Shown here: piece by piece, positions 923 through 29,378 of the stretch | Layout: every line of letters begins with the position of its first letter | Position numbering within the stretch: the stretch's first letter is position 1 | Virus record (IMG/VR): IMGVR_UViG_3300028832_002797 | Reading direction: 5' to 3' (one strand) | From: a virus | Lineage: Duplodnaviria > Heunggongvirae > Uroviricota > Caudoviricetes | DNA: 64,000 bases | Made by a program: the position numbers and the translations under genes | The notes under the pieces: model-generated | Told to the model about the DNA's origin: nothing | Database searches by the model: none | Seen by the model: the letters and a program-made list of their open reading frames with translations, nothing else

Positions 923-1750
923 TTATGCACCACACATTTTTACAAAGTCTTCTTCAGAAATAAGGGTCGTTCCCTGCTTACGGGCCTTTTGAGCCTTGCT
1001 CGAAGTGGAATTCGGATCGGCGAGCACGAGGAAGTTCGTAGTCTTCTTCATGGTTTCATCAACGACACCGCCATTGTTTTCGACCAATGCCCAGAGTTCC
1101 TTACGAGGACGGGAAGCCGCACCAGTGAAACAGAAAGACTGACCGTTGAGAACACCCGCGACAGGAGCCTTCGGAACGAGAATGGAGATATACTTCAAAG
1201 TTTCTCGCATGTCGGATTCGAGTGCCTTCAGACCAGCTTTGAGCTTATCGGACGTAATTTGACCCACGCCTTCGCAAACATAATCGTTACAGTTGATGAA
1301 GTCATCGAAAGTGGTCAATTTCTTCGCATCGATAATCCTCTGGACGATTCTTTCGCCAAGGCCTGAGATGTTATAGCCCGAGATAAATTGAGCCAATGTG
1401 GCTTGTTTATGGGCTTCTATTTGGGCCTTAATGATTTCAGCGGAACGCTTGCCATAACCTTCAAGATTTTCAATCTTCTTGTAGTCAATCTTGTAGAGAT
1501 CCGAGATAGACTTAAAAACGCCAGCGTCATAAAGAGATTCAATGGTGGTCAAGCCAAGTTCCATAATCTGAAGTTTTTCAGTCCATTTCGAAATACGACC
1601 GGAAAACTTGCTCTTGCACAGTTCGTTAGTGCAATAGAACTGTTTATGATTTTCAGAAACTGTCAAATCACCGCCGCAAATCGGACAAACAGTCGGCATG
1701 TTCCAGTTGTGAAGGCTTGCTAAAGTTTTAACGTCCATTGTAATCTCCAT
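923..1750 (-). CDS. ligA: NAD-dependent DNA ligase, C-terminal fragment (Zn-finger + HhH + BRCT domains only)
   Basis: CPICGG...C..C zinc-finger motif, helix-hairpin-helix region, and a BRCT-like GQSFCFTG...VLADPNSTSSKAQKARKQG segment. These align with the LigA C-terminal modules. The ORF-track start at 1780 is TTG and would translate the promoter box. I place the start at ATG 1748-1750 (MEITMDV...). Confidence 0.8.
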   Translation of the reverse strand: MEITMDVKTLASLHNWNMPTVCPICGGDLTVSENHKQFYCTNELCKSKFSGRISKWTEKLQIMELGLTTIESLYDAGVFKSISDLYKIDYKKIENLEGYGKRSAEIIKAQIEAHKQATLAQFISGYNISGLGERIVQRIIDAKKLTTFDDFINCNDYVCEGVGQITSDKLKAGLKALESDMRETLKYISILVPKAPVAGVLNGQSFCFTGAASRPRKELWALVENNGGVVDETMKKTTNFLVLADPNSTSSKAQKARKQGTTLISEEDFVKMCGA

Positions 1751-1760
1751 TGTATGACTA

Positions 1761-1772
1761 CAATATAGCAAA
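1761..1772 (-). promoter_or_regulatory. Conserved phage promoter-like box (minus-strand CTATATTG) about 10 nt upstream of the ligA-C ATG
   Basis: Plus strand reads caatatagcaaa. Same motif family as more than 25 other intergenic sites. Confidence 0.45.
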
Positions 1773-1798
1773 TTTGGCAAGCTTTGTCAATGGTAAAT

Positions 1799-1993
1799 TT
1801 ACGGGTTATCTATCGGAACGAGCTTCCAGCCGTATTTTCCACATTTTTCTCTTGCGAATGTTGCGGCTTTTTCGTCATCGGTCCAGGTTTTCACGTTTTT
1901 ATCCATCATATACTGATATGTATCGGAATTCGTAGGAAATACCGGGCCATTAGGAAAATCAAACTGTACTGTCCAAATATTATTACATGTCAT
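1799..1993 (-). CDS. hypothetical small protein (64 aa)
   Basis: ORF track. Compact spacing in the operon. Confidence 0.4.
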   Translation of the reverse strand: MTCNNIWTVQFDFPNGPVFPTNSDTYQYMMDKNVKTWTDDEKAATFAREKCGKYGWKLVPIDNP

Positions 1994-2171
1994 CTTGAAT
2001 TACCTTTTCTGAAAATTCTTCGAGCTTATCTAGGCTCTTTTCTGCTGCGACGCGTTCTTCTGTAACGACGTCGGTATCAAATCTATCGAGATGAAGCATG
2101 GCCCTAGCCAATTCTGCGGCCGGGAACATTTCCATCATTGTTTTCGGTCTTTCTTTATTTTCTTCGTCCAT
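1983..2171 (-). CDS. hypothetical small acidic protein (62 aa, MDEENKERPK...)
   Basis: Internal ATG at 2169-2171 lies immediately downstream (6 nt) of a promoter box. The upstream part of the track ORF overlaps the uvsX 3' end and is probably not coding. Confidence 0.35.
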   Translation of the reverse strand: MDEENKERPKTMMEMFPAAELARAMLHLDRFDTDVVTEERVAAEKSLDKLEEFSEKVIQDDM

Positions 2172-2177
2172 AATAAT

Positions 2178-2191
2178 AAAATATAGTAAAA
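2178..2191 (-). promoter_or_regulatory. Promoter-like box (minus-strand TTTTACTATATTTT) directly upstream of the 1983..2171 start
   Basis: Plus strand reads aaaatatagtaaaa. The start codon follows 6 nt later, a leaderless-type arrangement. Confidence 0.4.
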
Positions 2192-2192
2192 T

Positions 2193-2222
2193 AAAAGGGC
2201 CCATTTGGACCCTTTTATTTAT
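2193..2222 (-). terminator. Rho-independent terminator hairpin (aagggcccatttggaccctt) with flanking A/T runs, downstream of uvsX
   Basis: GC-rich inverted repeat followed by T-runs on both strands, so potentially bidirectional. Confidence 0.55.
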
Positions 2223-2238
2223 TTGTTCTGGAAAACAA

Positions 2239-3432
2239 CTACATATCGTCGTCGTCTTCAGCGAGAATATCACCGTCGAGTTCGTCGAGGTTAGCACCAG
2301 TACGGTTAACCATAGCGATACCTGTATTTTCACTGAGGTCTTCGTAACCCGCATTCATAAGAGCGAGAACGTCTTCGTTTGCGTTGATAAGTACCTGTTC
2401 TTCGAATGCGAACTTGGATTCTACATAATGCCTGAACGTTTCATCCTTATAGAGAGGAATCCAGAATTTAGCACAGTAGAGTTCTTCTTCCTTCCACATT
2501 CTTTCCGGCTTGCCAAGTTCACCAGTTTCAGGATCAACCTTGGTATCGTAACCGATACGTGCATAATAACCCGGCTTCGGCTTGTAAACTACGCCACATT
2601 CCATGGCTTCATCCAAAAGTCCGTAGTACGGAGATACACCACCTGCATGAAGGATAAGATACTTGGTCTTGACGAATTCCTTAGCGGAACGACCCTTAGC
2701 AACAGCACAGGTAACGACCTTACCAAGAACATTCTTGCCCTTGTCACGTTCCTTTTTAGAGGAGTAACCGAGAACAATACCGTCAGCGTTAAAGATAATA
2801 CGCATACCGCCAGGAATCTTATACGGGTCGCCGAACATTTCGAGAGAAGCATAAACGTGGTTCATGACGAGAGTCGTGAAACCGCCACTCAAAATAATGT
2901 TTGCGAGTTCGTTTTTGAATTTTGCGGAAGACATGTTAACAGCGGAACTTCCCTGTTGTGCCTTTTCAAGAACCTGGTCTTCGATAATCGGACCCCAGGA
3001 GTCAAACAATACGAAAGTATTGCGACGTTGCTGAAGCGAGCCACACTGAGCCGAGAGCTTAGCGATGAACTGCTTAATTTTCGGAATGCTGTTCGTAGGA
3101 CCGTGAACACCGACTTCATCCATGTTAATTCCGAGCTTCGTAAGAAGGTCATAGTTAACGGAGTTTTCAGTATCGACAATGAAACAGTCCATACCAGAAT
3201 CCTGTGCAGCCTTAAGAACTGAATAACCAATCATGGACTTACCCCAGCCGGAACCGGCAGCAATCATGCTGATTGAACCCTTCTTAATACCACCCTTAAT
3301 TTTACCAGAAAGAACGAGGTTAACCGAAATACAGTTCGTACTAAGCCATTCCACAGGAATACGCTCAGTATGAAGAAGATCGGCCAAATCCTTATCTTTC
3401 TTCATTTTCGCCAAAAGCGTGTTTTTTGCCAT
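2239..3432 (-). CDS. uvsX: UvsX/RecA-family recombinase
   Basis: Walker A motif GSGWGKS. RecA-fold core with an acidic C-terminal tail (EDDDDM). Size (397 aa) is like T4 UvsX (391 aa). Confidence 0.85.
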   Translation of the reverse strand: MAKNTLLAKMKKDKDLADLLHTERIPVEWLSTNCISVNLVLSGKIKGGIKKGSISMIAAGSGWGKSMIGYSVLKAAQDSGMDCFIVDTENSVNYDLLTKLGINMDEVGVHGPTNSIPKIKQFIAKLSAQCGSLQQRRNTFVLFDSWGPIIEDQVLEKAQQGSSAVNMSSAKFKNELANIILSGGFTTLVMNHVYASLEMFGDPYKIPGGMRIIFNADGIVLGYSSKKERDKGKNVLGKVVTCAVAKGRSAKEFVKTKYLILHAGGVSPYYGLLDEAMECGVVYKPKPGYYARIGYDTKVDPETGELGKPERMWKEEELYCAKFWIPLYKDETFRHYVESKFAFEEQVLINANEDVLALMNAGYEDLSENTGIAMVNRTGANLDELDGDILAEDDDDM

Positions 3433-3542
3433 TTTTTACCTATTATTTTATTTTGTCATCGAATTTGTCATCATGAGCTTTAATCGGCTAACGTACTTTG
3501 AATCGCCCTTTTCATTGCACTTTTACTGTTAGCCAGAATATT

Positions 3543-3552
3543 TATAATATAG
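3543..3552 (-). promoter_or_regulatory. Promoter-like box (minus-strand CTATATTATA) following a terminator hairpin
   Basis: Plus strand reads tataatatag, adjacent to hairpin 3560-3577. Confidence 0.4.
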
Positions 3553-3559
3553 AAAAAAT

Positions 3560-3577
3560 GGTAAACTTTCGTTTACC
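3560..3577 (-). terminator. Terminator hairpin ggtaaac-ttt-cgtttacc downstream of the 3599..3961 gene, followed by a T-run on the minus strand
   Basis: Perfect 7-bp stem plus T6 on the coding strand. Confidence 0.5.
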
Positions 3578-3598
3578 ATTCTTAAATTTGTTCCGATT

Positions 3599-3961
3599 TT
3601 ATCGGCCGAGGAACTCGTTGAGAACTTCACCTTCCGACGGATATAAATCACGGTACGGATTATGATATTCTGCCTTCTGTTTTACGAATTCACTCTTTTC
3701 CGTCTTTTCGACAACGAAATCCTTATCAATCTTTGCAGCGGGTGCTTCGAGAATTTCCTTAGATTCCGTAATCTGTTGCGGCTTAATCAAACCTTCAGCA
3801 GCCTTAGGCTTTGATGATTCGTTAATCTGCGGAGCCGGAGTTTCTTGGTGAGCGGCTTCATATTCCTTGAGCTTAGTCTTATGCTTTGTCCACATGTGAG
3901 AGCCAAGCTTCATACGGTTTTCAAAAGTTTCACCACAAATAGGGCAAGTTACTTGATCCAT
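3599..3961 (-). CDS. C2H2-type zinc-finger protein (CPICGETF...HMWTKH)
   Basis: N-terminal CxxC...HxxxxH pattern. Verified ATG at 3959-3961. Confidence 0.5.
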   Translation of the reverse strand: MDQVTCPICGETFENRMKLGSHMWTKHKTKLKEYEAAHQETPAPQINESSKPKAAEGLIKPQQITESKEILEAPAAKIDKDFVVEKTEKSEFVKQKAEYHNPYRDLYPSEGEVLNEFLGR

Positions 3962-3973
3962 AGTCTACTCCAA

Positions 3974-4594
3974 TTATTTCTTTTTAGTATTCTTCTTTGC
4001 AGGCTTCTTCTTGTTCTTCTTTCCGTTAACAGCCTCATTTTGGCGGGGCTTAGTTTTCTTCGGAGTGCTTTTGCCTGGCTTGACAGTTTTCTCAGTCTTC
4101 TTCTTGGTTTCATTTGTTGTTTCCTTACGTGAACGCTTCTTTTCAGTCGGCTTCTTGACCGGCTTAAGAGCCTTTGCAATCTTCTTCAGATCTTCATCGG
4201 AAATCTTGTCGGTTTCCTTTTCAACGACCTTCGGAGTAGCAGGAACTTCAGCCTTAGCCACTTCCAATGTTTCTGGAGTTTCAGCGAGAACCTTGCCAGC
4301 GAGCTCTTCTGTTACGGTATATGTCGGTTCCAATTCAACCATCGGTTCCGGCTTATTTGCTTCTTCGCAAATAATGTTTCCGGCTTCCATGATGTCGCAT
4401 GCTGTCTGCTGACATTCTGCTTCATGCTGAGCTGGATCTTCTTCATATCCTTCAATCATAGAGTCAAGCGGATTTTCGTCAAGCTTAACGATTTCCGGCT
4501 TCTGTTCACGCAATGCCTTGCGGAGCAAGAAATATCCGATTACAACCAAGATTACGGCGAGCGCAATCAAACCAATTACTAATGTAGTATTCAT
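3974..4594 (-). CDS. membrane-anchored protein with acidic middle and lysine-rich (histone-H1-like) C-terminal tail
   Basis: N-terminal hydrophobic helix (LVIGLIALAVILVVIGYFLL). The C-terminus reads KKKTEKTVKPGKSTPKKTKP...KKNTKKK. Confidence 0.5.
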   Translation of the reverse strand: MNTTLVIGLIALAVILVVIGYFLLRKALREQKPEIVKLDENPLDSMIEGYEEDPAQHEAECQQTACDIMEAGNIICEEANKPEPMVELEPTYTVTEELAGKVLAETPETLEVAKAEVPATPKVVEKETDKISDEDLKKIAKALKPVKKPTEKKRSRKETTNETKKKTEKTVKPGKSTPKKTKPRQNEAVNGKKNKKKPAKKNTKKK

Positions 4595-4642
4595 TTTTTC
4601 ACCTCATTAAAATATAACTTGTGTATTGTATATATAAAATTT

Positions 4643-5719
4643 CTAACTGAAAAACTCGAACATTGTCGGTCGTTCCAAATTAATTTCTTCCTTCGGACCT
4701 AACCAACCAGCGATTCTGAACATCGTATCGAAAAGCTGACAGAAAGATTTTCTGAATGCGGTTTCATAGTCAATCTCAAAGTATTTATTAAATTCTTGCG
4801 GCCAAGATTCGAGATATGCGACTGCTTCAATCGGCGAAGTTTTTCCGTCCATATCCTTGGCTACAATCTTCTGAGATGGCTTTACATATACATATCGTAA
4901 TTTGGAATTATTACGAATCGGGTTATATTTCAACCTGTCCTTAGTAACGATATAGTTGTAGATAATCGAAATCTTTGCACCGAAAATGAGACCAGTCGGA
5001 AGAATCAAACCGTGGTCCATGTAATAGTCCATGAGAGTCTCGTATTTCATATCGAACGGCGTCGTATTCATCGCACTTTCAGAATACAGCTCTCTGAATT
5101 TGTCCATGGCGATTGTCGTATATTTCGTATAGTTCTTGATACCGATAACCGACGAAATAACGTTCAAATCCGAGCTCTTAAACTGGTCATAAACCTTGTA
5201 GATATATTCCTGTGCTTCGTCCTTACCGATACCGTCGCAGATTTTGAATGCGAGTTCTTCAGCAGCCGTTTTACAGAAGTCTGGCATAGTCGATTTCTTA
5301 ATAGGAACGCCCATAATTTTATGCTTCATGTGGTCAAGCGGATATAACGAACCTTCACTATCGATAATATTACCGATATACAACTTCTTTGCAAAACAGA
5401 ACATGTTTTTGAAGATGTTTTCACGGTTGAAATTAATCTTATTGACCGTATGGAACTGCTTGGCTCGAATGTCGAGAATCTTATCGAAGAAACGCTGGAA
5501 CACGTCCTCGCATTTCTGGAAATAGCTTCGATATTCCTCTTCGTTCGTAATCTGCAAACCAGATTCCATCAAACGCTTCTTTAGCTCAATAATCGAAAAA
5601 TAAACTGAGTCCGTATCATTATGGACCGCACAGACATCGCGACCTTTCACGACAAGAGGACTCATGTCGTTCATTTGAAATTTATCAATCTTTACATCTA
5701 ATGCTTTCTTAAATTCCAT
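4643..5719 (-). CDS. Family B DNA polymerase, C-terminal subunit (motif C region, HNDTDSVYF)
   Basis: YGDTDS-like motif C (VHNDTDSVY). ATG at 5717-5719 lies 1 nt after the TAA (5721-5723) of the upstream pol fragment. The track ORF extends upstream in a non-coding overlap. Confidence 0.75.
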   Translation of the reverse strand: MEFKKALDVKIDKFQMNDMSPLVVKGRDVCAVHNDTDSVYFSIIELKKRLMESGLQITNEEEYRSYFQKCEDVFQRFFDKILDIRAKQFHTVNKINFNRENIFKNMFCFAKKLYIGNIIDSEGSLYPLDHMKHKIMGVPIKKSTMPDFCKTAAEELAFKICDGIGKDEAQEYIYKVYDQFKSSDLNVISSVIGIKNYTKYTTIAMDKFRELYSESAMNTTPFDMKYETLMDYYMDHGLILPTGLIFGAKISIIYNYIVTKDRLKYNPIRNNSKLRYVYVKPSQKIVAKDMDGKTSPIEAVAYLESWPQEFNKYFEIDYETAFRKSFCQLFDTMFRIAGWLGPKEEINLERPTMFEFFS

Positions 5720-5720
5720 C

Positions 5721-7928
5721 TTAATCCTCAATACCGAGAAGGTCAGTGTCCTTGTTGAATTCGTAAGCGTAGATTTCCATTTCGTCATTACCGCGAAGAA
5801 CAGTAATCTTTTCATAGAAATCGTACTTATATGTCTTTTCTTCCGTAATGATGGAAACTGTCGAGAATTCCTTGACAACATCCTTGAGCAAGAACGGAGA
5901 AACATAGTATTCATTGAGATTCTTGGTCAACCAGTCTCTCAAAGTGACACGAGCGCAACGGCAAATAGCACGAGCAACGTCAGGGTCATACAAAGCGAAA
6001 CTGTTAGCAAGAGAAACACCGTAAACCGAGTTAATGATGAGCTTCTTGGTCATCTGTCGGTTATGATACAAATGTTCACCAGCTTTATCGCCTTTCTTGT
6101 GACATTCCTTTTCCTTATTCTTATATACCTTACGTTCTGCAAACACCTGCTTGACAACGTTCGGAAGAATACCGTCATCACGGTTATAGAAACCAAGTTC
6201 TGCAACGTCTGTCGGAATAACCTCACCGGATTCAATCTGTTCCTTAGTCGGATGAACAACCTTCAATTCCGGAGAGATATGGAATTCCATAATGTGGTGC
6301 GGATATGACGAGGTAATATCGAAAGACATACAATCGTCATGTCGACCAGGGAAGTCATAACAATAACCTGCCTTTACCTGGAATTCTGGGAACGGATGAG
6401 GATCCTTCTTATACGCTTCCCATGCGGCAAGGAAATCCTTTTCAGTTTTCCAATGCTCGAATCTTCTCTGTCCGACAAGTCGCTTGATTGTATCGTAATC
6501 ATACTTTCCTTCAGACTGAGCTTCCTTATAAGCATCATAGAAAACACGGAACTTACAATAGTCCTTATAACGCTTTGCACCCGGTTCCCATTCAGTGTTC
6601 TGGAAATAATCGTTTCCGTCCTTATCTTTTACGATATAGCAACGTTCATTTCTCCACCAGTCAACATGATGGTCTTCACGGTCATTCAAAACACGGTTGG
6701 TCTTATGTAAGAATTTTAAGATATAACCAGTAGTCGTCGGAACCTTCTGTTCAACCTTATCGAGAGTAACAAGGCAATCGAATGCATATTCAATAATAAG
6801 GTCGAAGAGCTTGTTTTTCTTTTCAAGGTCGACCATAATCATAACGTCCTTTCTGTTATACTTCAGGAAGTTATTACCGTCAATCTTGTAGGTTTCAGAA
6901 ATTGCACCGCTATATTCCAACTTTTGGTCATTTAATTCGAGGTTGGCAACATAGTTAAGGGAATACGAAGAAAGAGGCGGATGAGATCCGAAGACTTCGT
7001 ACAGTTTCATGTAGTCAAGAGAATACAAACCAGGAATCGTGTACTTCGTTCCAAGTTCAACGTTTTCCATCTTGCGGTCAGTAATCTTTTCAGCCACAGG
7101 CATCATGCCGAGAGGAGACAGATTCTTTTCCCATTCAACCTTGATGTCGTATTTCTCTCTGAGAACTTCACAACGACGCATGATATAGGGAATATCGTAT
7201 GCGAGCGAGTTCCAACCTGTAATGATGTCAAAATGATTATTGGCGAACCACTTAATCCATTCACGGATAAGTACCATTTCTGACTTACAGTACGTATAAT
7301 TCGGTAAATCCTTCGGGTCATCTGTATATCTGATTGTGCTCCAGGTATAAGATTGACCAGTCTTTGTAGAATAACAAGTAATGGCGTTAATTGGCCACTG
7401 AGCTATTTCAGGAGACGGGAAGTCATATGAAACAAAACAGCTATCATCGTAGGGAAGCCATTTCTGAACTTCAATGTCATAAACAAAATACTTGTCATGG
7501 TCAAACTTCATATCGAAATCAATAAGACTGATGTCGAGAGTTTTCTTGGTTTTCTTTTCGCAGACCTTAATCAATGTTTCGTCATAATACTTACTTCCTG
7601 ACGCAACTTCAATATCGAAGAAACAGATATTCCATTTGCTCATATCAACTTGGAGTTCTTCGTTATCGTATAGTTGGTGCATGTATTTGACTTCTGGACG
7701 CAAATTACCTTCACATACGCCTCTAAGACCCATAAGGGAATTACGGTCACTATAATCGAACCGTATCATCGGTGTCTTGTGAATGTCAGTAATATTGCTC
7801 TTCTTTGAAGGATCCGGCCTGTAGCACCAGTTATGAAATTCAACTTCTTTAAAATCAATATCATCTTGGGCTTTAAAATAGAGCTTTTGTTTTTTAAAGT
7901 CCCAGTAACAATTCTTAAATCCACTCAT
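5721..7928 (-). CDS. Family B DNA polymerase, N-terminal subunit (3'-5' exonuclease + palm motifs A and B)
   Basis: Exo I (FFDIEV) and Exo II (WNSLAYDIPYI) motifs. Motif A DITSSYPHHI and motif B KLIINSVYGV. Ends before motif C. Confidence 0.85.
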   Translation of the reverse strand: MSGFKNCYWDFKKQKLYFKAQDDIDFKEVEFHNWCYRPDPSKKSNITDIHKTPMIRFDYSDRNSLMGLRGVCEGNLRPEVKYMHQLYDNEELQVDMSKWNICFFDIEVASGSKYYDETLIKVCEKKTKKTLDISLIDFDMKFDHDKYFVYDIEVQKWLPYDDSCFVSYDFPSPEIAQWPINAITCYSTKTGQSYTWSTIRYTDDPKDLPNYTYCKSEMVLIREWIKWFANNHFDIITGWNSLAYDIPYIMRRCEVLREKYDIKVEWEKNLSPLGMMPVAEKITDRKMENVELGTKYTIPGLYSLDYMKLYEVFGSHPPLSSYSLNYVANLELNDQKLEYSGAISETYKIDGNNFLKYNRKDVMIMVDLEKKNKLFDLIIEYAFDCLVTLDKVEQKVPTTTGYILKFLHKTNRVLNDREDHHVDWWRNERCYIVKDKDGNDYFQNTEWEPGAKRYKDYCKFRVFYDAYKEAQSEGKYDYDTIKRLVGQRRFEHWKTEKDFLAAWEAYKKDPHPFPEFQVKAGYCYDFPGRHDDCMSFDITSSYPHHIMEFHISPELKVVHPTKEQIESGEVIPTDVAELGFYNRDDGILPNVVKQVFAERKVYKNKEKECHKKGDKAGEHLYHNRQMTKKLIINSVYGVSLANSFALYDPDVARAICRCARVTLRDWLTKNLNEYYVSPFLLKDVVKEFSTVSIITEEKTYKYDFYEKITVLRGNDEMEIYAYEFNKDTDLLGIED

Positions 7929-7934
7929 AGTATC

Positions 7935-7948
7935 AAATATAGAAAAAA
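7935..7948 (-). promoter_or_regulatory. Promoter-like box (minus-strand TTTTTTCTATATTTG) 6-7 nt upstream of the polB ATG
   Basis: Plus strand reads aaatatagaaaaaa. ATG at 7926-7928, a leaderless-type spacing. Confidence 0.45.
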
Positions 7949-7979
7949 CCTACAAACGATTAAGTTTGTAGGTCTTTTT
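7949..7979. terminator. Bidirectional hairpin terminator (cctacaaac-gattaa-gtttgtagg) flanked by A6/T5 runs
   Basis: 9-bp perfect stem with T-runs on both strands. Lies between the 7997..8203 gene and polB. Confidence 0.55.
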
Positions 7980-7996
7980 GTTCCAAATTTCTTCAA

Positions 7997-8203
7997 TTAT
8001 GCATTCAACGTCTTGATGAAGGTCTGCATGTCCTGGAAAGCCTGGAGGTAACCAGCCTTGAATTCAGCCTTTTCAGCCGGAACTTCGGTCTTGCGGACTT
8101 CATCGATCTTTGCGACCACGATTTGCTTGATTGCACGGAGGTTGTTAACAACAACGTCTTCGGCGTCAACTGCATCATTAAAGTTATTAGCATTAGTCAT
8201 CAT
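7997..8203 (-). CDS. hypothetical small protein (68 aa)
   Basis: ORF track. Confidence 0.35.
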   Translation of the reverse strand: MMTNANNFNDAVDAEDVVVNNLRAIKQIVVAKIDEVRKTEVPAEKAEFKAGYLQAFQDMQTFIKTLNA

Positions 8204-8216
8204 AATTTGTTTTCCT

Positions 8217-8447
8217 TTATCGTTTAGTTAACCATATGTTATAGGTTCTTGTGTCTTCTTTTTGTGTCTTCGCATTGTCAGGAATCATAGATTGATATTC
8301 TTCCGGAATTTCAGAAAAATCTGGAGCTTGCTCATACTGTTTCCACACATTGGTATTGGCAATAGCATTGGCTATTTCCGGCATACCTTCTGTAGCTTCT
8401 TCAATATCAAGCGGAAGTCTTCTCTTTCTGCTGTACTCTGGTATCAT
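8217..8447 (-). CDS. hypothetical acidic protein (76 aa)
   Basis: ORF track. Overlaps the infA-like 3' end by about 40 nt. Confidence 0.3.
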   Translation of the reverse strand: MIPEYSRKRRLPLDIEEATEGMPEIANAIANTNVWKQYEQAPDFSEIPEEYQSMIPDNAKTQKEDTRTYNIWLTKR

Positions 8448-8697
8448 ATCTAAATTTTATCCTTCCTTTACTCATATCATAGATGTTAACACCGATGAGG
8501 CATTTATCACCTGGAGTGATATGAATATGCTTAACACGAATTTTACCAGATATTGTGCAGAGCACTCTCTGGCCGTTTTCGAGTTCTACGTCAAACATCG
8601 CATTAGGGCGGGCTTCTAAAACCGTGCCGATAACATCGACTTCTGACAAGTTTTGTTTTTCTGCTTTATCTTTTTTATTAGTTTTAATTTTTTTCAT
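8407..8697 (-). CDS. infA: Translation initiation factor IF-1 homolog (S1-like OB fold) with lysine-rich N-terminal extension
   Basis: VIGTVLEARPNAMFDVELENGQRVLCTISGKIRVKHIHITPGDKCLIGVNIYDMSKGRIKFRY aligns closely with bacterial IF-1 (GTV.E.LPN.MF.VELENGH...ISGKMR...I..GD.V....PYDL.KGRI..R). ATG at 8695-8697 lies 1 nt after the upstream TAA. Confidence 0.8.
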   Translation of the reverse strand: MKKIKTNKKDKAEKQNLSEVDVIGTVLEARPNAMFDVELENGQRVLCTISGKIRVKHIHITPGDKCLIGVNIYDMSKGRIKFRYDTRVQQKEKTSA

Positions 8698-8698
8698 G

Positions 8699-21667: not shown

Positions 21668-21690
21668 AGAAAGGGCTTTGTAAGCCCTTA
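21668..21690 (-). terminator. Hairpin aagggc-tttgtaa-gccctt plus T-run, adjacent to a promoter box
   Basis: Downstream of the 21693..21965 stop. Confidence 0.45.
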
Positions 21691-21692
21691 AA

Positions 21693-21965
21693 TTATTTTA
21701 CTGTATAAGTTTGTCCTTCGTACTCAATCGTTCGCTCATGTTTCGGGTTCTTGACTTCTTTAGGATCCATCTTGAGCGAAAATCCGCTTGTCGTTTCAGG
21801 AACAATCTTTCGACTGTCATCTGCATATCCGAAGCACGGTCCTGTTCCAGCAGTGTCGGCATTAGTATGCATATCTTTAATGACAATACATGAAATACCG
21901 AAAACAAATGCGAGAATCAATAAGATGCACCAATGTTTTTCTCTTGAAGAATTCCACATTTCCAT
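21693..21965 (-). CDS. small membrane-anchored protein (90 aa)
   Basis: One N-terminal TM helix. Confidence 0.4.
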   Translation of the reverse strand: MEMWNSSREKHWCILLILAFVFGISCIVIKDMHTNADTAGTGPCFGYADDSRKIVPETTSGFSLKMDPKEVKNPKHERTIEYEGQTYTVK

Positions 21966-21969
21966 TGTA

Positions 21970-22383
21970 TTACCTCTTCTTTATAAATTTTTCGTAATCA
22001 GAAAGTACGCTTGCTTTATATTTTTCCTTTTCAGCATTATAAATCAGGATTTTTGTATAAAGCCATTTAACTATGCTAAACGGTAACTTCAAAATTATCA
22101 AACATAATTTGAAGAAGTTATACACAACAGCCATGCCGGTAATTCCTTCGAGTAGCTGCACAATCATCATGACAACACCCGTATTTACATAACACCATGT
22201 CAGATAGCAGAAGAATGAATGTTCATGTAAATAACAGTTTCGCTGAGCACAAATAATCGTATGCTGTTCAAGGTGCATACAGATACATGTTGCCGCAATA
22301 GTGATGATTATTGCTGGAAGCCAGTCATACAGGAATATGTCCAACACATCATCATTGTCATCATCTTTATAATCCCAATACAT
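21970..22383 (-). CDS. polytopic membrane protein (137 aa)
   Basis: Multiple hydrophobic helices. Confidence 0.4.
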   Translation of the reverse strand: MYWDYKDDDNDDVLDIFLYDWLPAIIITIAATCICMHLEQHTIICAQRNCYLHEHSFFCYLTWCYVNTGVVMMIVQLLEGITGMAVVYNFFKLCLIILKLPFSIVKWLYTKILIYNAEKEKYKASVLSDYEKFIKKR

Positions 22384-22385
22384 TC

Positions 22386-22706
22386 TTATCCCTTATATTT
22401 GAAGTAAGTTCTGAATAACCACGGAGCCTTTCTAATCTGATTTGTCAGCTCTTCAATAGCACGATATGTAAAGACTTCTCTATTTCCGTCATCGATTTTT
22501 ACGGTATCGCCGTAATAAAGCTCATTGAACAGTTTAACAAATTCGTCATTAGAAAGATACTTCTGACGGTCATGAATTTCTACAAGTTTTTCCCGGACAG
22601 ACTTTGCATTGTCTGTAACGACAGCATTTGCTGCACAGTATTGGGAAGTAAACACACCGATAACGACACCGACCAAAGTGCTGAGGATTATTGCCAGAAT
22701 TACCAT
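22386..22706 (-). CDS. membrane-anchored protein (106 aa)
   Basis: N-terminal TM helix. Confidence 0.4.
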   Translation of the reverse strand: MVILAIILSTLVGVVIGVFTSQYCAANAVVTDNAKSVREKLVEIHDRQKYLSNDEFVKLFNELYYGDTVKIDDGNREVFTYRAIEELTNQIRKAPWLFRTYFKYKG

Positions 22707-22709
22707 GAT

Positions 22710-23270
22710 TTACCCCTTGAGCAAAGTAGCATGACGGGAAGCCGTAACAGTTGTAAGTTCGATACCAGTATCGTCAAAAATACTGAGCTTCATAGCACTG
22801 AAAGAAACTGTAAAGTACGGATTCTGACTCGGCGCTTCAATCGTCAAATCCAGAGCACTAATGCCAGTAACCTTGACCTTTTCATAAACATAAGAACCAT
22901 AAGGAATACTCGGATTCAGCTTGAACTGGTCGACAACAAGCTTGTCAAGCATATAACCATTCTTCAAAGCGTCAATCCAGAAAGCATAATCGACGATGTT
23001 TGCTGCCTTGAAAACAATCGAGAAACAAAGATTAGCTGAATCTGTGAATTCACGCATAGCATCAGATTCACCCTTCGTATTTGCCGCCATCGGAGCACCG
23101 TCTACACGATTAACACGACCGCTAAGATGTTCACTCCAAGCATTAATCAAAGTCTTGTTAGCGATATACTTGGAATTCGTATTTTCACCGAATTCAAAAC
23201 GAAGTTTCATTCCATATCCGTAGTCACGGGTAGCAGTTTCTTTTTGAGGGTAGATTTGCTGGTTATTCAT
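22710..23270 (-). CDS. hypothetical protein (186 aa)
   Basis: ORF track. Confidence 0.4.
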   Translation of the reverse strand: MNNQQIYPQKETATRDYGYGMKLRFEFGENTNSKYIANKTLINAWSEHLSGRVNRVDGAPMAANTKGESDAMREFTDSANLCFSIVFKAANIVDYAFWIDALKNGYMLDKLVVDQFKLNPSIPYGSYVYEKVKVTGISALDLTIEAPSQNPYFTVSFSAMKLSIFDDTGIELTTVTASRHATLLKG

Positions 23271-23335
23271 GGTAGTTCCTTTTGTTTATGTGTATAATAT
23301 AGTAAATTTACTTATAAATGTCAACCCAAAAAATA

Positions 23336-23360
23336 AAAGGCCGACTTACGTCGACCTTTT
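23336..23360 (-). terminator. Hairpin aaggccgac-ttac-gtcgacctt with T-runs
   Basis: Downstream of the stop of 23392..25308. Confidence 0.5.
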
Positions 23361-23391
23361 ACCCCTCACACATCCGAATTATCCACACTCC

Positions 23392-25308
23392 TTACTTATC
23401 TGCTTCGGAGAACAGATTAATAAGCGTGTCCTTGCTCAACTGAGTCAAGTCAAGAGCAACTTCAGTCTCAGTATCGGAATCTTCGACAAATGTAAAGCCT
23501 GCTCTTTCGAGAATCGGCTTCAGGTCGACGAACGAACGACACTTGTTCTTGAGGTTCTCAATATACACGTCTGCATATTCTTGACTCGGGACACGTCCTC
23601 CTCCCTGGGTAAGGTCCATGAGATAGACTTTGTTGTCCACGATCAATGCACACTGCTTGTCGCGTTCGTTATCCACCGGAACGATGAATTCAGCGACAAC
23701 ATTGTTCGGGTCAACCTTTGCACTTACCCTGTATGCGTCCTTCTTCTTTTTCTCTTGACGAGCGACGAAGAACTTAAACTGGGACTTTGCGGAACCATTG
23801 TACTGACTTACGGAAATCTTTCCATCCGGGCACTTGCAGTCGATGTAGAACAATTCTGTTGCTTCAGGGTCTGCATTGGTCATGTCGCCAGAGAAAATAA
23901 TCTTATTTTCACGGTCAGTGAATGATGCGTTCCAGCCGTAGCTACTACCGTTAATATCGGCCATGTGAAGGTCGAAATCACGAGTACCCCATTCATTACG
24001 CCAATAGATACCGACGATATTGTGATCGTCAGCCATATTGACAGAGGTACCGAACGGATAGTTACCGATGAAGTTTTTTTCTGACGTTGGGACGGTCAGA
24101 TTGATATTCAACGGATAACGAACAGTACATGCCTTATCCTTGATGGAATTGACAATGGAATCTTCGAGCATTCCATAAAGTACCATCAGGTAGGAATTCA
24201 TGGACTGGCTTGTAGCCGGAGTGTCCTTGCGGATCCACATCTTGCCGTTACGAATCACGTACATCTTGCCACGAGCATTCTGGAGCTTGGCAAGAATACC
24301 TTGCATGAGAGTAATCTTCTTGAAGTTGGTGATTTCACCCTTTTCAAGACGAGCACGTACATCGTCCAGCTTCTTCTGTTCAGAAAGTACGGTTTCCCAG
24401 AAACCGGCAGTGAACGGCTTATGGTCAGTAACAGCCAAACGACGGATATGGTTAATAACCGATGAATTCGACTTCTTGCCAACAACAGCGGCCTTAAGCT
24501 TTGCTGCAGCCTTTCTGAAAGCTTCATTCTTGAAAACAGACGACTTACCAGCGTCCTTCTGGTTCTTGAATGCCAAGAACAGAGGCTTGAAGCGGTAGAA
24601 AATTGAAGCGAGTGCATGACACTGCTCTTCCGACAGCTTAGTAAAGTCGACGCTTTCAGCCTTTTCCTTAATCATGCGGATAGTCTTCTTGTCCTTGATG
24701 AGCATAGCTGCACCAGTAGCCTTGAAGACGAAGTATCGAAGCATGTTAAACGGATCCTTACCGTAGAAACCGGTTGCATCCATCAGGGCGATAGTTGCTT
24801 CCTTATTCTTGATGGTATCAATATCGAGACCATAGGTCTTGAAACGCTTCTGTTCGGTAATGAAGCCAACAAGTGCGTTAATGGTTTCGGTTTCAAGAGC
24901 GATACCAGCCTGGAGCATCTTAACACAACGGTTATAGATTTCCTCATCAGTTGCCGGCATAATCACCTTGAAAGAGTCGTACGGGATTTCAACGTCCGGA
25001 GCATTGTTCGGAACGTATGTTTCACCCGTATAATCAGTTCCGTAGGTCGAGGCGTAATGAAGAAGTTGATCTACCAACAGTTCAAAACGCGTCTTAGACG
25101 TGATGTCGGACCATTTGGCGTAGAAGGTCTTATTGTAATTTGTCTTCGCTTCAGCCTTGACCCAATCGAGTGCGAGCTTGGAGCAACAATCCGGGTGGAT
25201 AATCCAACCGTACTTTGCAGATTCAGCGTTAACATCTTCAAAAGAACGCTTTGAGTTACCTTCTGCCTTAGGCATGACATTGAACATTGTAATCAACTTA
25301 AGATTCAT
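23392..25308 (-). CDS. large hypothetical protein (638 aa)
   Basis: Long uninterrupted ORF with verified ATG. No motif recognised by eye. Confidence 0.5.
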   Translation of the reverse strand: MNLKLITMFNVMPKAEGNSKRSFEDVNAESAKYGWIIHPDCCSKLALDWVKAEAKTNYNKTFYAKWSDITSKTRFELLVDQLLHYASTYGTDYTGETYVPNNAPDVEIPYDSFKVIMPATDEEIYNRCVKMLQAGIALETETINALVGFITEQKRFKTYGLDIDTIKNKEATIALMDATGFYGKDPFNMLRYFVFKATGAAMLIKDKKTIRMIKEKAESVDFTKLSEEQCHALASIFYRFKPLFLAFKNQKDAGKSSVFKNEAFRKAAAKLKAAVVGKKSNSSVINHIRRLAVTDHKPFTAGFWETVLSEQKKLDDVRARLEKGEITNFKKITLMQGILAKLQNARGKMYVIRNGKMWIRKDTPATSQSMNSYLMVLYGMLEDSIVNSIKDKACTVRYPLNINLTVPTSEKNFIGNYPFGTSVNMADDHNIVGIYWRNEWGTRDFDLHMADINGSSYGWNASFTDRENKIIFSGDMTNADPEATELFYIDCKCPDGKISVSQYNGSAKSQFKFFVARQEKKKKDAYRVSAKVDPNNVVAEFIVPVDNERDKQCALIVDNKVYLMDLTQGGGRVPSQEYADVYIENLKNKCRSFVDLKPILERAGFTFVEDSDTETEVALDLTQLSKDTLINLFSEADK

Positions 25309-25612
25309 AGTATTTCCTCATTAAAAGTGTTAAAGCGAGAAGTAGTATTTATTTGCCTAAATTATTATAGGAACATCTTTTGCTTTAACGGGTTAAAATA
25401 TAGTAATTATTGTGGGTTTTGTAAACCCCTATTTTTTATTTTTTTTTTCCTTGGATGCTTTCTTCTTCAAGGAGTTTTCTGTTTCCAACGTACTTCCCAT
25501 AAAAACTTACCGCTCGGATCGTGTTAGAATAGTTTAGGGATTGAGTTCTGTTTGACGATAAACAACCCGAACGGTCTGTATAATATAGCAAGTGCTTTGT
25601 CTGTTGTAAACC

Positions 25613-26329
25613 CTAATTATAAATAAAATTTTTAATAGATTCAAAAACAATATCTTTATTATTAGTATAATCGTATTCCCAGATTATAAGAAGCTTTATA
25701 TTTTTAGATTCACATAATATTCGTTTTTCATTATCTCGATTCCATAATTCTTGTGCTATTTTACGAGGTTGTATTAAAAAATCATTCGCTTTATAAAAAC
25801 GTGGGTCTGCATGCCATACAGTACCATTATATTCAATGGCTTTATTTAAATTTGGTAAATATATATCTAATTCTTTATTCCCAATAACAAATCTTTCATT
25901 TTGTAAAATTTTATCATTATAAAATGTTTTTATAAATTCACAAATTTCATCTTCAGCTCTAGAACGCATTAATGTATTGTTTAATCTCATAGTATTAAAC
26001 CGTTTTTCTTGCACTTCTGGATTTTGCGATGAATTCTTATATCCCGTCTTTTCAAAATACGTCTTTATATAAGTATTATATCGTTGTTTATTTGCTATTG
26101 GATCTGCAGAACTACAGGAATAATTACAATGCTTTTTATATCCTCGACCAAATTTAATAAATTTAGTCTCTTTACCACAAGTTGGACATATACCTTCACC
26201 GGGTTTTCTTATAAATTTATCGTAATATTCTTTTGAAGTTAACCCATGCTTTTTAAAAGCATGAGATGTTAATCCTTGTGTATCAACACATTCTTTGCCA
26301 CATATCTGACAAATCATACTATACCTCAT
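25613..26329 (-). CDS. Zinc-finger protein fused to DUF559/Vsr-like PD-(D/E)xK endonuclease domain (candidate free-standing homing-type nuclease)
   Basis: N-terminal CxxC/C2H2-like motifs (CQICGK...HAFKKH; CPTCGK). C-terminal ELDIYLPNLNKAIEYNGTVWH matches the DUF559 core (D-[FI]Y-P...AIE-x-[DN]G..H). The gene is AT-rich. Confidence 0.55.
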   Translation of the reverse strand: MRYSMICQICGKECVDTQGLTSHAFKKHGLTSKEYYDKFIRKPGEGICPTCGKETKFIKFGRGYKKHCNYSCSSADPIANKQRYNTYIKTYFEKTGYKNSSQNPEVQEKRFNTMRLNNTLMRSRAEDEICEFIKTFYNDKILQNERFVIGNKELDIYLPNLNKAIEYNGTVWHADPRFYKANDFLIQPRKIAQELWNRDNEKRILCESKNIKLLIIWEYDYTNNKDIVFESIKNFIYN

Positions 26330-26377
26330 TTAATTTTAAAAGATTGCAGTCTTTTATACTATTTATAATAAAAAAAT

Positions 26378-26401
26378 GGGAATACTCTGCAAAGTATTCC
26401 C
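26378..26401 (-). terminator. Hairpin gggaatact-ctgcaa-agtattccc plus T-run downstream of the patatin gene
   Basis: 9-bp stem. Confidence 0.5.
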
Positions 26402-26425
26402 TAATGCTATGAGGTATAGCATGTT

Positions 26426-27298
26426 TTAAACGTTTTTAATAAAATCTAGTATATTTATACGAACAGTTTCATAATATTTATCCCAGATTCCCATTATTAA
26501 ATTAATATTTTCGTCACTTACATTATCCATTTTAAGTTTTTTCTTATATGTTGGACATGCATTAAATACGTTTTCAGCCCCAAGTATTGCTTCACATTCA
26601 TATTGTGGGCTTTTGCTAGAACGTGCAATCCAATCGCTGAGCATATATTCTGCCCATCCAAGTAAAGTTTGATTACCATGCTCAGTATTTGGAGTTTCCA
26701 TACCTGTACTAAAATTAAGAATTTTAATATCTTTATGTCCCTGTTTAAATTGACCTGCCAAAAGAATATCTGAACATTCATTAGCCCAGCAACCGCCATC
26801 CATATAAGATAAACCATCTTTTTCAATAACATCAAAATATGTTGGTGCTGCACAAGATGTTAAAACTGCAAATGCTTTATCAACATCTTTATCGCCTAAA
26901 TCCCATACTTTTTCAACAGATTTACCATTCATGCAAGTAGTTGGTATAAAAATAGGTTTTTTCCAATCTGAACATTTACCTTTCAAATTACTCTGTAATA
27001 ATTTTTTAAGATTAGAATTATCATATGTTGGGCAAGACGGTTTTAAACGCTTATACCATGAATACTTTGTAAAAATTTTCTTTAAGTTATTCTTATAAAG
27101 TTCAAATATATCATGTGCCGAATATCCTTCAGCTAAACAAGCAGCAATAATAGAACCTGTACTTGTTCCTGCAAAAGCAGAAGTTAAATCACAAAGTTTT
27201 TTACCAAGATCCTGTTCAAGACGACACATAAAAGCTAATGGGCCAATTCCAAGAGCACCACCGCCCGCAATACTAATACATAATTGTTTCTTTGCCAT
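26426..27298 (-). CDS. Patatin-like phospholipase
   Basis: Oxyanion GGGALG, nucleophile elbow GTSTGS (GxSxG) and catalytic MDGG (DGG) motifs in the canonical order. Confidence 0.75.
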   Translation of the reverse strand: MAKKQLCISIAGGGALGIGPLAFMCRLEQDLGKKLCDLTSAFAGTSTGSIIAACLAEGYSAHDIFELYKNNLKKIFTKYSWYKRLKPSCPTYDNSNLKKLLQSNLKGKCSDWKKPIFIPTTCMNGKSVEKVWDLGDKDVDKAFAVLTSCAAPTYFDVIEKDGLSYMDGGCWANECSDILLAGQFKQGHKDIKILNFSTGMETPNTEHGNQTLLGWAEYMLSDWIARSSKSPQYECEAILGAENVFNACPTYKKKLKMDNVSDENINLIMGIWDKYYETVRINILDFIKNV

Positions 27299-27340
27299 AT
27301 TTTCTCCTATACATTATTTATAAATAGGAGAAAACTTAGA

Positions 27341-27820
27341 TTATGCTAAATTTTTCAATATTGTGGTTTCAAGCTCAAAATCATTCATGGCCTTTTTATA
27401 TTCAAAACTATCTTCATGTCCAGAAAGTCTCGAATATGGAATTCCCATAGAATCCCAGATTCTATGCTGCATAACTATCCAGCCATTCTCAGCATAAAAA
27501 TCTTCCCATCTATTAAGAAATTCAATCAGATCATTTAGCTTAGATTTTGTCAGCCATTCCAACATTTTAAAGACATTATCTTTATGGTCAAAAATCATTA
27601 TTGCACATCTGTCTTTAATGGGCATAAGAGTACATGTGACCATAATTTCAAACTTTTCTTCATCTTCATACCAACTGAGTTCAACCTCAAAACGATTATC
27701 CTTATCACGAAGACAAATACTTTCATGGGTTTGAGAAGTATTTATACTCATGTAATAATTATCTGGTTTAATTCGAAGAATATAGTTTTGAAAATGTTGG
27801 AATGTATATGCGTCAGACAT
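27341..27820 (-). CDS. hypothetical protein (159 aa), AT-rich island
   Basis: ORF track. Confidence 0.4.
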   Translation of the reverse strand: MSDAYTFQHFQNYILRIKPDNYYMSINTSQTHESICLRDKDNRFEVELSWYEDEEKFEIMVTCTLMPIKDRCAIMIFDHKDNVFKMLEWLTKSKLNDLIEFLNRWEDFYAENGWIVMQHRIWDSMGIPYSRLSGHEDSFEYKKAMNDFELETTILKNLA

Positions 27821-28266
27821 TACTTCTTACCTAGAAGCTTATTAAAGGCATTTACGAGCTTACTGATTTCGTCTTCACCGTGTGTAGGTTCATAATCAAT
27901 ACTTGTATCATAAACAACACGACGTTGAACTGGTTCTTTCTTCATTTTTTCCTTATGTTCATTCATAAGTTTTTCAGCAAGTTCATATGACGGAATATAA
28001 AATCCAACATCCCATGAAGCATCTTTTGAACAAATATGAGGTTTAGATTCTTCTTTCCAAAGACAGCTATCACGGTATCTTAAGTATCGTTCCATATTAT
28101 AGGTCAAACGAAACCAAGTCTTCGAACCACTATTTATCTTACGGTATTCAACAACAAACCATGACGGATCTCGGTTTGCAATACTTGGAGAAACGTCAAA
28201 ATCGAACGTCGGATATTCAAATGTACCAAGTTCTATAATACGATATTCATAAAGTGATTTTTCCAT
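27820..28266 (-). CDS. hypothetical protein (148 aa)
   Basis: ORF track. Confidence 0.4.
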   Translation of the reverse strand: MEKSLYEYRIIELGTFEYPTFDFDVSPSIANRDPSWFVVEYRKINSGSKTWFRLTYNMERYLRYRDSCLWKEESKPHICSKDASWDVGFYIPSYELAEKLMNEHKEKMKKEPVQRRVVYDTSIDYEPTHGEDEISKLVNAFNKLLGKK

Positions 28267-29378
28267 TAGAATACATATCCTTCACGAGACTTACCAGTAG
28301 TAACATTACGAAGAATGGTTGGAATGATTTCACCAGCCTTCGTAATAATGACTTCATGACCAATTTCAATGCCCATATCTTCGAGCATATCGATATTGCA
28401 CATATTTGCACGCTGAACAGTAGTTCCACAGAGTTCCACAGGTTCAACGACAGCGACCGGAGTCAAATTACCATTCTTAATAGACCATTCAATATTGATG
28501 AGCTTGGTCTGAGCAAGAGAATACTTCGGCTTCAAAGCGATAGAGAATTCCGGGAGGTAATTCGTTTCAAGATCTTCATAATCGATAACAGAAGTCTTCC
28601 AAACAAGACCGTCAATCTGATAATCACGTTCTTCATGCCAAACCTGGTCCATAATGGCAACAGCCTTATCGCCAGTCATAGAGTCGAGGTCATAAATCTT
28701 GTATTCAACAACATCGAAACCCTGCTTGGTCATCCAGTCGAGCATATCGACCTGAGTATGAAATTTAGTGTTCTTCGGGCGAGCTTCATAAACCTTGATA
28801 TTGAGCTTGTCACAATCAGAACCATCGAGATGCTTCATAATACCAGAAGCGGCATTACGACAGTTCTTGTACTTCGGGAAGAACTGTTCCTTAACGGACT
28901 TGTAGAGCAAAATTTCACCACGGATAGTTCCGGTAAATTCCTTATCCTTAAGCTTCTTGACAGCACCTTTCATTTTGAGGATATTATCGGTAATGTCATC
29001 ACCGTATTCACCGTCACCGCGAGTAATGCCCTGAACGAGCTTACCGTCAACGTATTCAAGAGCAATAGAACAACCGTCAAGCTTCAAAGGAGCGACGACA
29101 AATTCATGACCGGCCATACGACACTTATTGAACCAGACGTTCATTTCTGGAGCAGTATTGGCCTTATTCTGAGAGCCCATGATAATGTTGTGCTTTACCT
29201 TTTCAAATCCTTCGGTATGATCCTTACCGACTTCCTTCAAAACGTCAGAATCAGGATAATTGGTTTTGAGTTCGTCCCAGAGAGCATCGAATTCGATGTC
29301 GCTCATGATCGGGGTGTCGGAGTTGTAGTAGGCGTCTTGTGCCTGGCGGATTTTAGCTTCAAGTTCGTTCTTATTCAT
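28266..29378 (-). CDS. ligA: NAD-dependent DNA ligase, N-terminal fragment (domain Ia + adenylation NTase + OB fold)
   Basis: Collinear with LigA residues about 1-400. KxDG motif PLKLDGCSIALEY, ITRGDGEYGDDIT, CRNAASG, DGLVWK and VIITKAGEIIP. Ends at the OB-fold boundary. ATG placed at 29376-29378, 6 nt after a promoter box. Confidence 0.85.
   Translation of the reverse strand: MNKNELEAKIRQAQDAYYNSDTPIMSDIEFDALWDELKTNYPDSDVLKEVGKDHTEGFEKVKHNIIMGSQNKANTAPEMNVWFNKCRMAGHEFVVAPLKLDGCSIALEYVDGKLVQGITRGDGEYGDDITDNILKMKGAVKKLKDKEFTGTIRGEILLYKSVKEQFFPKYKNCRNAASGIMKHLDGSDCDKLNIKVYEARPKNTKFHTQVDMLDWMTKQGFDVVEYKIYDLDSMTGDKAVAIMDQVWHEERDYQIDGLVWKTSVIDYEDLETNYLPEFSIALKPKYSLAQTKLINIEWSIKNGNLTPVAVVEPVELCGTTVQRANMCNIDMLEDMGIEIGHEVIITKAGEIIPTILRNVTTGKSREGYVF

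Follow-up and report, generated by a model that had tools for sequence, protein, structure and literature searches.

Can two genes that lie 26.5 kb apart on a phage genome together make one DNA ligase? The question is raised by a 64,000-nucleotide stretch (the window) of the IMG/VR virus record IMGVR_UViG_3300028832_002797, assigned to the Caudoviricetes, whose source is a T4-like jumbo phage of ~400 kb. One minus-strand gene (the N-half) carries the catalytic portion of LigA, the nicotinamide adenine dinucleotide (NAD+)-dependent DNA ligase, and a second (the C-half) carries its DNA-binding portion (Table 1). An earlier sequence-only reading had taken the pair for a genuine two-subunit, trans-assembling enzyme rather than a pseudogene. 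We examined the domains and the point of the break, the conservation of residues, purifying selection, the co-occurrence of the halves, promoter motifs, the series of gaps in relatives and the incongruent trees of the two halves, and we consider it likely that each gene supplies one subunit of a heterodimeric NAD+-dependent DNA ligase of this phage.

The N-half product covers positions 1-382 of the 652 in the LigA profile TIGR00575 (1.2e-83, 281.6 bits) and the C-half product positions 384-652 (3.2e-38, 131.6 bits), placing the split at the OB/Zn-finger junction to within about one profile position. In the N-half, Pfam detects DNA_ligase_aden (PF01653, 5.2e-34) and, at residues 290-363, DNA_ligase_OB (PF03120, 4.3e-21), together with a weak Nlig-Ia match (6.9e-4) below the cut-off; LigA structures in the PDB were matched down to 4e-31, and the domain Ia motif YY..D.P..SD.EFD aligns with T. 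filiformis LigA. In the C-half, Pfam detects BRCT above its cut-off (1.5e-9), with HHH_5 (2.2e-5, 25.3 bits) and ZBD (1.7e-3, 18.6 bits) each falling just under theirs. Alignment of the C-half with T. filiformis LigA (1dgs) spans residues 402-656 (1.9e-25), and an AlphaFold (AF2) model built from 32 homologues, with a predicted local distance difference test (pLDDT) score of 86.5, matches LigA structures and also 9hu3_B, subunit B of a heterodimeric phage ligase. The two halves jointly hold the same six modules in the same order as single-chain LigA. The LigA equivalog is a single polypeptide of ~650-700 amino acids (aa), whereas here there are two chains of 370 and 271 aa; the enzyme is a split derivative, not a canonical LigA equivalog. 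These profile searches, which the sequence-only reading had called for, returned complementary halves, neither with the full LigA set, and recovered the Zn-finger, HhH and BRCT homology of the C-half. They bear out what that reading had said of the two genes: domain Ia, the adenylation (KxDG) domain and the OB fold followed by a stop in one, the remaining domains in the other, a break at the OB/Zn-finger boundary, and both on the minus strand.

Residue conservation was read from 118 N-half and 118 C-half clade sequences (query included), down to ~50% identity, and from further alignments of 25 and 32 sequences. The N-half retains the motif set KLDG (with the adenylylated lysine, K99), TRGDG, RGE, CRNAA, DGxVxK and ALK. 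Invariant or nearly so in the clade are the residues of domain Ia that bind nicotinamide mononucleotide (NMN) (Y17, S26, D27, E29 and D31), K99-L-D101-G102, R120-G121-G123, R153-G154-E155, C173-R174-N175, D256-G257-K261 and K283, and likewise, in the C-half, the Cys4 zinc finger (C18, C21, C36 and C41) and the BRCT core. At the cut itself, the OB fold of the N-half is followed by only 11 residues, a clade-specific tail TTGKSREGYVF (clade form TTGKxxxGYxF), while the Zn-finger region of the C-half is preceded by a 13-aa head with a conserved HNWNxP, which in the window reads MDVKTLASLHNWN. More than 100 homologue clusters per half share the short length, down to ~50% identity, and the reading frames are intact across hundreds of independent contigs. 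Measured against relatives ~90% identical, the N-half has a ratio of nonsynonymous to synonymous substitution rates (dN/dS) of 0.065 at dS 0.85 and the C-half one of 0.057 at dS 0.58, and the overall range of 0.057-0.074 denotes strong purifying selection on both. Every related genome for which enough sequence is available carries both halves. By these measures, neither half is a pseudogene.

Each half was also said to have its own promoter box and ATG. A perfect motif does precede each gene, but the proposed C-half start at 1750 lies 4 codons too far upstream; translation most likely begins at ATG 1738: in relatives, the codon corresponding to 1750 specifies Leu and the protein starts with the Met that corresponds to 1738, and a GGAG Shine-Dalgarno sequence (1745-1748) stands 6 nt before this ATG. 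The motif is of a sigma-70-like class, TTGACA-N17-CTATATT(G/A)TA, and with ≤2 mismatches it occurs 12 times in the window (0.31 expected), 11 of these on the coding strand; examples are the sites at 1759-1790, 23293-23324, 29383-29414, 30386-30417, 31091-31122 and 54628-54659. Only two of the 12 copies are perfect (TTGACA-N17-CTATATTGTA), and both stand at the ligase halves. In relatives, the motif is found at the same offset ahead of each half, including in genomes in which the halves are neighbours (L012), and the position of the N-half site is kept down to 64% protein identity. So is the spacing of 7 nt from the -10 hexamer to the N-half ATG (29378), which has no Shine-Dalgarno sequence; because this ATG is so close to the -10 box, the N-half mRNA is probably leaderless. 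Promoter activity and timing of expression are predicted here from consensus matches. Promoters of the TTGACA/TATAAT type would argue against a Bacteroidota host, despite the names of metagenome-assembled genomes attached to some homologues. An identical 29-nt core is common to the sites at 30386-30417 and 31091-31122 and points to duplication of a promoter segment.

The dispersed arrangement is stable in the genome and does not stem from faulty assembly. A 411,059-bp IMG/VR contig carries the N-half (90% identical) at 63,578-64,693 and the C-half (93%) at 91,890-92,711, on the same strand and 27.2 kb apart, and the same 27.2 kb spacing recurs in a 136,626-bp IMG/VR contig. The larger contig is collinear with the window over the two stretches compared, window 1-11653 and 18873-38825. 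The order N-then-C on one strand holds at 14 loci with the halves ≤10 kb apart as well as in the two contigs with 27.2 kb spacing. Across relatives, the gap measures ~0.19 kb (L027, L029, L031), 0.4 kb (L009), 0.75 kb (L012, L028), 1.0 kb (L007), 1.9 kb (L034), 2.6-2.8 kb (L025, L026, L033) and 5.2-6.6 kb (L039, L032, L037), and would exceed 10 kb in L011 and L035 and, seen from the C-half side, in L014 and L017; it is widest, at 26.5-27.2 kb, in the window and its close relatives. The genes that fill it are lineage-specific. In the window, where ~27 kb of unrelated genes had been described, the intervening genes are indeed non-ligase phage genes, and the distance from the N-half stop to the C-half start on the same strand is 26.5 kb. 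A comparison with related phages, proposed earlier as a check on contiguity, thus gives a graded answer: the wide spacing is shared by two contigs, but the halves are adjacent in some clade members and fused in the nearest outgroups.

The sequence-only reading knew of no described trans-split LigA, and on this point it was wrong. Phage T5 encodes ligA (323 aa) and ligB (259 aa), annotated as 'NAD-dependent DNA ligase subunits A and B' and assigned to phrog_3359 and phrog_3498, which are cut at the same boundary (T5 ligA ends at ~378-381 and ligB starts at 388, compared with 382 and 384 here). As in the window, the two T5 genes stand on one strand in N-then-C order with promoters of their own, those of the window being predicted and those of T5 annotated between the genes. 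The T5 subunits match the two chains of T5-like structures in the PDB (9hu3 and 9i5i; ligA to chain A at 8e-104, ligB to chain B at 3.8e-80). The entry 9hu3, released 2026-01-14, is titled 'PR1 phage heterodimeric DNA ligase in complex with 21-mer nicked DNA containing phage nick sequence'; for the PR1 enzyme the heterodimer on nicked DNA is thus solved, whereas for the clade of the window it is proposed by analogy. The systems differ in that the T5 genes are 202 bp apart and those of the window 26.5 kb, with distant clade members adjacent at 0.19-1 kb, and in that the T5 subunits lack the conserved tail and head peptides. The T5-type enzyme is tied to the sealing of the phage's genomic nicks (9hu3 title; PMC4319617), and nothing suggests a nicked genome for the phage of the window. 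A review of jumbo phages (PMC7824862) does not mention a split LigA. What is new relative to T5 is only the wide separation and the evolutionary history; there is no new kind of enzyme or mechanism, and the interest is evolutionary, and practical for annotation.

Single-chain LigA (E. coli 2owo; T. filiformis 1dgs/1v9p; phages AR9 and c-st; the metagenomic protein P0241) has the same catalytic motifs, Cys4 finger and BRCT domain, and it is this fused type that supplies the nearest relatives of the window halves outside the clade. Where the single chain has a covalent OB-Zn linker, the window has a stop codon for the first half and a new promoter and start for the second. Among 1.8 billion representatives, searched exhaustively, the nearest protein that does not belong to the clade was P0241, a fused LigA of 645 aa (48% identity with the N-half, 42% with the C-half) whose linker has no counterpart of the TTGKxxxGYxF tail or HNWNxP head; L036 and L038 likewise carry single fused LigA open reading frames (ORFs). 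Identity to T5 is 27% for the N-half and 22% for the C-half. The fused family phrog_3869 scores 309 bits on the N-half and 168.6 bits on the C-half, against 157 for phrog_3359 and 98.1 for phrog_3498, and in bootstrapped neighbour-joining (NJ) trees of either half the split clade and P0241 group together at 100%, with T5, AR9 and c-st outside. The split of this clade therefore arose independently of T5, because its nearest outgroups are fused and because its halves group with fused LigAs rather than T5 and score higher on phrog_3869. Judged by protein length, 32 of the 150 nearest representatives are N-half-only, most ending just past the OB fold, and by this measure the OB/Zn junction looks like a recurrent break point. 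A 156-taxon NJ tree with a Fitch count of 27 changes has no support values and may include fragments among its short proteins, and we use it qualitatively.

The two halves have not travelled together. In the N-half tree, the window groups with L012 (99% bootstrap; 64% identity, vs 50% to L025), whereas its C-half groups with L025/L026 (90% bootstrap; 61% identity, vs 46% to L012), and the C-half of L012 groups with that of L007 (100% bootstrap). Because the two trees are incongruent, the halves must have been reassorted between lineages. The C-half also keeps a neighbourhood of its own, with a 68-aa ORF downstream and, in relatives, NAD+ genes. It is conceivable, though doubtful, that core and clamp are freely reassorting, separately mobile modules, the C-module travelling with an NAD+ salvage island and being swapped independently of the N-module. 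Were this so, a conserved and portable docking interface would be implied (the TTGK..GY.F tail and HNWN.P head), the clamp subunit might serve more than one partner enzyme, and the phages would hold natural interchangeable ligase subunits in the most dispersed gene split of an essential replication enzyme known in phage.

How would such an enzyme work? From the observations above we infer physical heterodimerisation, docking through the terminal peptides, co-expression and the biological role. The N-half would need a partner, because a LigA-type core that ends after the OB fold self-adenylates and cannot ligate (PMC1684257). We propose that the 370-aa subunit would bind NAD+, adenylylate itself on K99, transfer the adenylate and seal the nick, with the 271-aa subunit serving as the DNA-binding clamp, which a core that lacks everything beyond the OB fold requires for ligation. 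The subunits would be made from separate transcription units with the same class of promoter and come together without a covalent bond, probably on nicked DNA, re-forming the ring in which single-chain LigA encloses the duplex. In place of the OB-Zn linker, the TTGKxxxGYxF tail of the N-subunit and the HNWNxP head of the C-subunit are candidate docking elements. During replication of the phage, the enzyme would seal Okazaki fragments and mend nicks, drawing on NAD+ from phage salvage genes. In the history we envisage, a fused phage LigA was cut at the OB/Zn linker within the clade, independently of T5; each half would have gained its own promoter while the two were still adjacent; and the gap would then have widened from 0.19 kb to 27 kb through rearrangements and the gain of genes that differ between lineages, as halves were exchanged between them.

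Several points weigh against a heterodimer. Heterodimerisation is argued from a relative just 22-27% identical; the incongruent trees and the 27 kb distance also fit a looser functional coupling; the promoter motifs at the halves are consensus matches only; no C-half was found within 10 kb of the N-half in L011 or L035; and the summed TIGR00575 score (281.6 + 131.6 bits) falls below the equivalog cut-off of 444.45, so the sequences are divergent from cellular LigA. One alternative holds that the proteins are independent, the N-half being a self-sufficient minimal NAD+ ligase and the C-half a free-standing Zn-HhH-BRCT DNA-binding or scaffold protein for other partners. Cores made of a nucleotidyltransferase domain and an OB fold can suffice in some viral ligases. 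The distance, the incongruence, the proteins of N-half-only length among the nearest cluster representatives and the company that the C-half keeps, namely NAD+ salvage genes and the 68-aa ORF rather than the N-half, would all be expected. Nonetheless, we regard independence as unlikely: LigA cores truncated after the OB fold adenylate without ligating (PMC1684257), both halves recur in one order on one strand at the 14 close loci and in the two 27 kb contigs, both are preceded by one and the same motif in perfect form, the peptides that flank the cut are conserved, and the solved T5-like enzyme is a heterodimer. The sequence-only reading of a genuine two-subunit ligase is well supported by dN/dS, residue conservation, co-occurrence and the analogous 9hu3.

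A second alternative would have the halves rejoined into one chain, either by a split intein (protein trans-splicing) or by RNA trans-splicing. Large phages offer models for genes in fragments. Among T4-like phages of the Aeromonas phage Aeh1 type, 'genes in pieces' include a split nrdA and a split DNA polymerase gp43. The pieces of a split intein need roughly 100 and 35 residues. Split inteins, with an endonuclease gene lying between the fragments, are known to fracture phage genes for DNA metabolism, one DNA ligase among them (PMC2677866), and a homing-endonuclease fragment does lie between the ligase halves in L007. The window ligase resembles these cases in that an essential DNA-metabolism enzyme of a large phage is made as two polypeptides needing reassembly, in the homing-endonuclease remnant of that one relative, and, as in 'genes in pieces', in a family-B polymerase that also occupies two ORFs. 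It differs from them in having no intein, in that up to 26.5 kb of ordinary phage genes, not one mobile element, separates its pieces, and in that these pieces were reassorted between lineages. Pfam found no intein or Hint domain in either half, and the TIGR00575 alignments (1-382 and 384-652) contain no extra sequence; with just 11 residues after the OB fold and 13 before the Zn-finger region, there is no room for the pieces of a split intein. The genes have separate promoter-like sites and start codons, and each ends in TAA. The TAA of the N-half overlaps the next ATG and that of the C-half the ATG of the next ORF (TAATG); translation past these stops gives nonsense. Stop-codon recoding was ruled out, with TAA ends, all three stop codons in use and a coding density of 0.86. 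Protein splicing does not rejoin the halves, and rejoining by either route is highly improbable. A third reading is that a rearrangement broke the ligase gene, which is now decaying, or that the metagenomic assembly is a chimera. Relatives do show extensive rearrangement of this region, and the window is probably metagenomic, but dN/dS of ~0.06 in both halves, intact frames in hundreds of independent contigs, conserved catalytic residues, and the ~27 kb spacing and collinearity of the 411 kb and 137 kb assemblies leave it next to no chance, selection and conservation effectively refuting it.

Between and around the two subunit genes of the proposed heterodimer lie the features collected in Table 1. 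The NMN adenylyltransferase-Nudix gene in the gap probably supplies the cofactor of the ligase. Homologues of it in relatives are, together with NAPRTase, nicotinamidase and NAD synthase genes, mostly clustered beside the C-half; NAD+ supply and turnover genes in relatives (L014, L015, L017, L025 and L011) comprise NAPRTase, isochorismatase/nicotinamidase, NAD synthase, PARG and NADAR. Homologues of the 68-aa ORF stand directly 3' of the C-half in L014, L015, L017 and L026 and ~2 kb downstream of it in L025, so that the ORF may be a functional partner of the C-half or simply tightly linked to it.

Table 1. Positions of the ligase genes, their promoter-like sites and neighbouring features (positions are those of the window, except in the last row)
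Feature	Position	Strand	Evidence or remark
68-aa ORF	717..923	minus	No Pfam or family match; ATG overlaps C-half stop
C-half, Zn finger + HhH + BRCT, 271 aa	923..1738	minus	TIGR00575, Pfam, PDB, AlphaFold model
Promoter-like site TTGACA-N17-CTATATTGTA, upstream of C-half	1759..1790	minus	Consensus match; followed by GGAG 1745-1748
Intervening stretch	1791..28265	minus	Ordinary jumbo-phage replication/repair genes, not part of ligase
UvsX	2239-3432		In gap
Family-B DNA polymerase, two ORFs	4643-7928	minus	In gap
ClpP	9764-10510		In gap
PolyA_pol-type nucleotidyltransferase	15706-16893	plus	PolyA_pol/CCA-adding-enzyme head domain, 7e-30
Rnl1 RNA ligase	17831-19063		In gap
NMN adenylyltransferase-Nudix (NAD+ synthesis)	20147..21313	minus	CTP_transf_like 1.6e-11, NUDIX 1e-12
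Patatin	26426-27298		In gap
N-half, LigA domain Ia + nucleotidyltransferase + OB fold, 370 aa	28266..29378	minus	Pfam, TIGR00575, PDB matches
Promoter-like site TTGACA-N17-CTATATTGTA, directly upstream of N-half	29383..29414	minus	Consensus match
Homing/HNH endonuclease fragment, 90 aa, followed by 142-aa ORF, in gap of L007 (435-kb relative)	11237-11934 (L007)		Fragment: phrog_655, 6.4e-18

A foreign origin of the intervening 26.5 kb is unsupported: its GC content is mostly 0.38-0.41, apart from 24-28 kb, where it dips to 0.35, and the parts compared are collinear with the relative. The 148-aa ORF downstream of the window N-half has no similarity to the 149-aa spacer ORF of adjacent-type genomes, nor, when insertion into an old gap was considered, did the ORFs of the 2.6-kb gap of L025/L026 resemble the genes flanking the window halves. 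A scan of spacer ORFs for mobile elements found a homing-endonuclease fragment only in L007, where the gap ORFs have the appearance of a mobile-element remnant; there, a 142-aa ORF after the fragment matches the C-terminal end of phrog_4538. In L017, an IS605 OrfB/TnpB-type (Cas12f-like) gene lies at 62-1141, ~9 kb upstream of the C-half, and a transposon is therefore present in this rearranging region. The tightest-gap lineages have a ~38-aa hydrophobic mini-ORF just upstream of the C-half (L027, ~11190-11306; L029, ~11200-11317; L031 and L007), with the pattern M.KI.MIPVTF.I.G.AFCC.ASPF.V.G.SF.KGFIG and a TGA overlapping the C-half ATG (ATGA); the window lacks this mini-ORF. Listeria phage LPJP1 (L003, 1747-3795) has adjacent ligA_2 (256 aa) and ligA_1 (393 aa) genes cut away from the OB/Zn junction, which could reflect a frameshift, an intron or another fission.

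The two polymerase ORFs of the window overlap (5721..7928, 735 aa; 4643..5914, 423 aa), and the match to phrog_1918 breaks off in the first at positions 18-89 and continues in the second with 90-369. This is not a sequencing error, because the 411-kb relative shares the layout (L023, 3736-7021); the gene could be a second one in pieces or be read by a programmed frameshift. The array is all minus-strand apart from two sizeable genes, the PolyA_pol-type gene of Table 1 and 46117-47382, which has a weak DUF1007 match. From 48000 to 56000 the GC content falls to 0.28-0.33, vs ~0.40 elsewhere, in a stretch that contains a helicase gene (52998-54605) and a weak Eco57I-type methylase match (51836-52930). 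Among GenBank phages, no DNA-level match to either ligase locus was found, and the best protein matches are ~30% identical; the lineage is known only from metagenomes, because GenBank phages give no DNA match.

For phages at large, fission of LigA at the OB/Zn linker would be a recurrent viable solution that has arisen at least twice, and once each half has a promoter of its own, linkage of the two genes would no longer be needed. The series of gaps across relatives documents the fission and then the progressive dispersal and reassortment of the subunits. For annotation, a phage 'LigA' that consists of the N-half only should not be called truncated or a pseudogene until a Zn-HhH-BRCT partner has been looked for throughout the genome. 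For enzymology, the T5/PR1 enzyme would gain a counterpart for comparison in this clade, a second heterodimeric NAD+ ligase of independent origin that has additional peptides at its termini.

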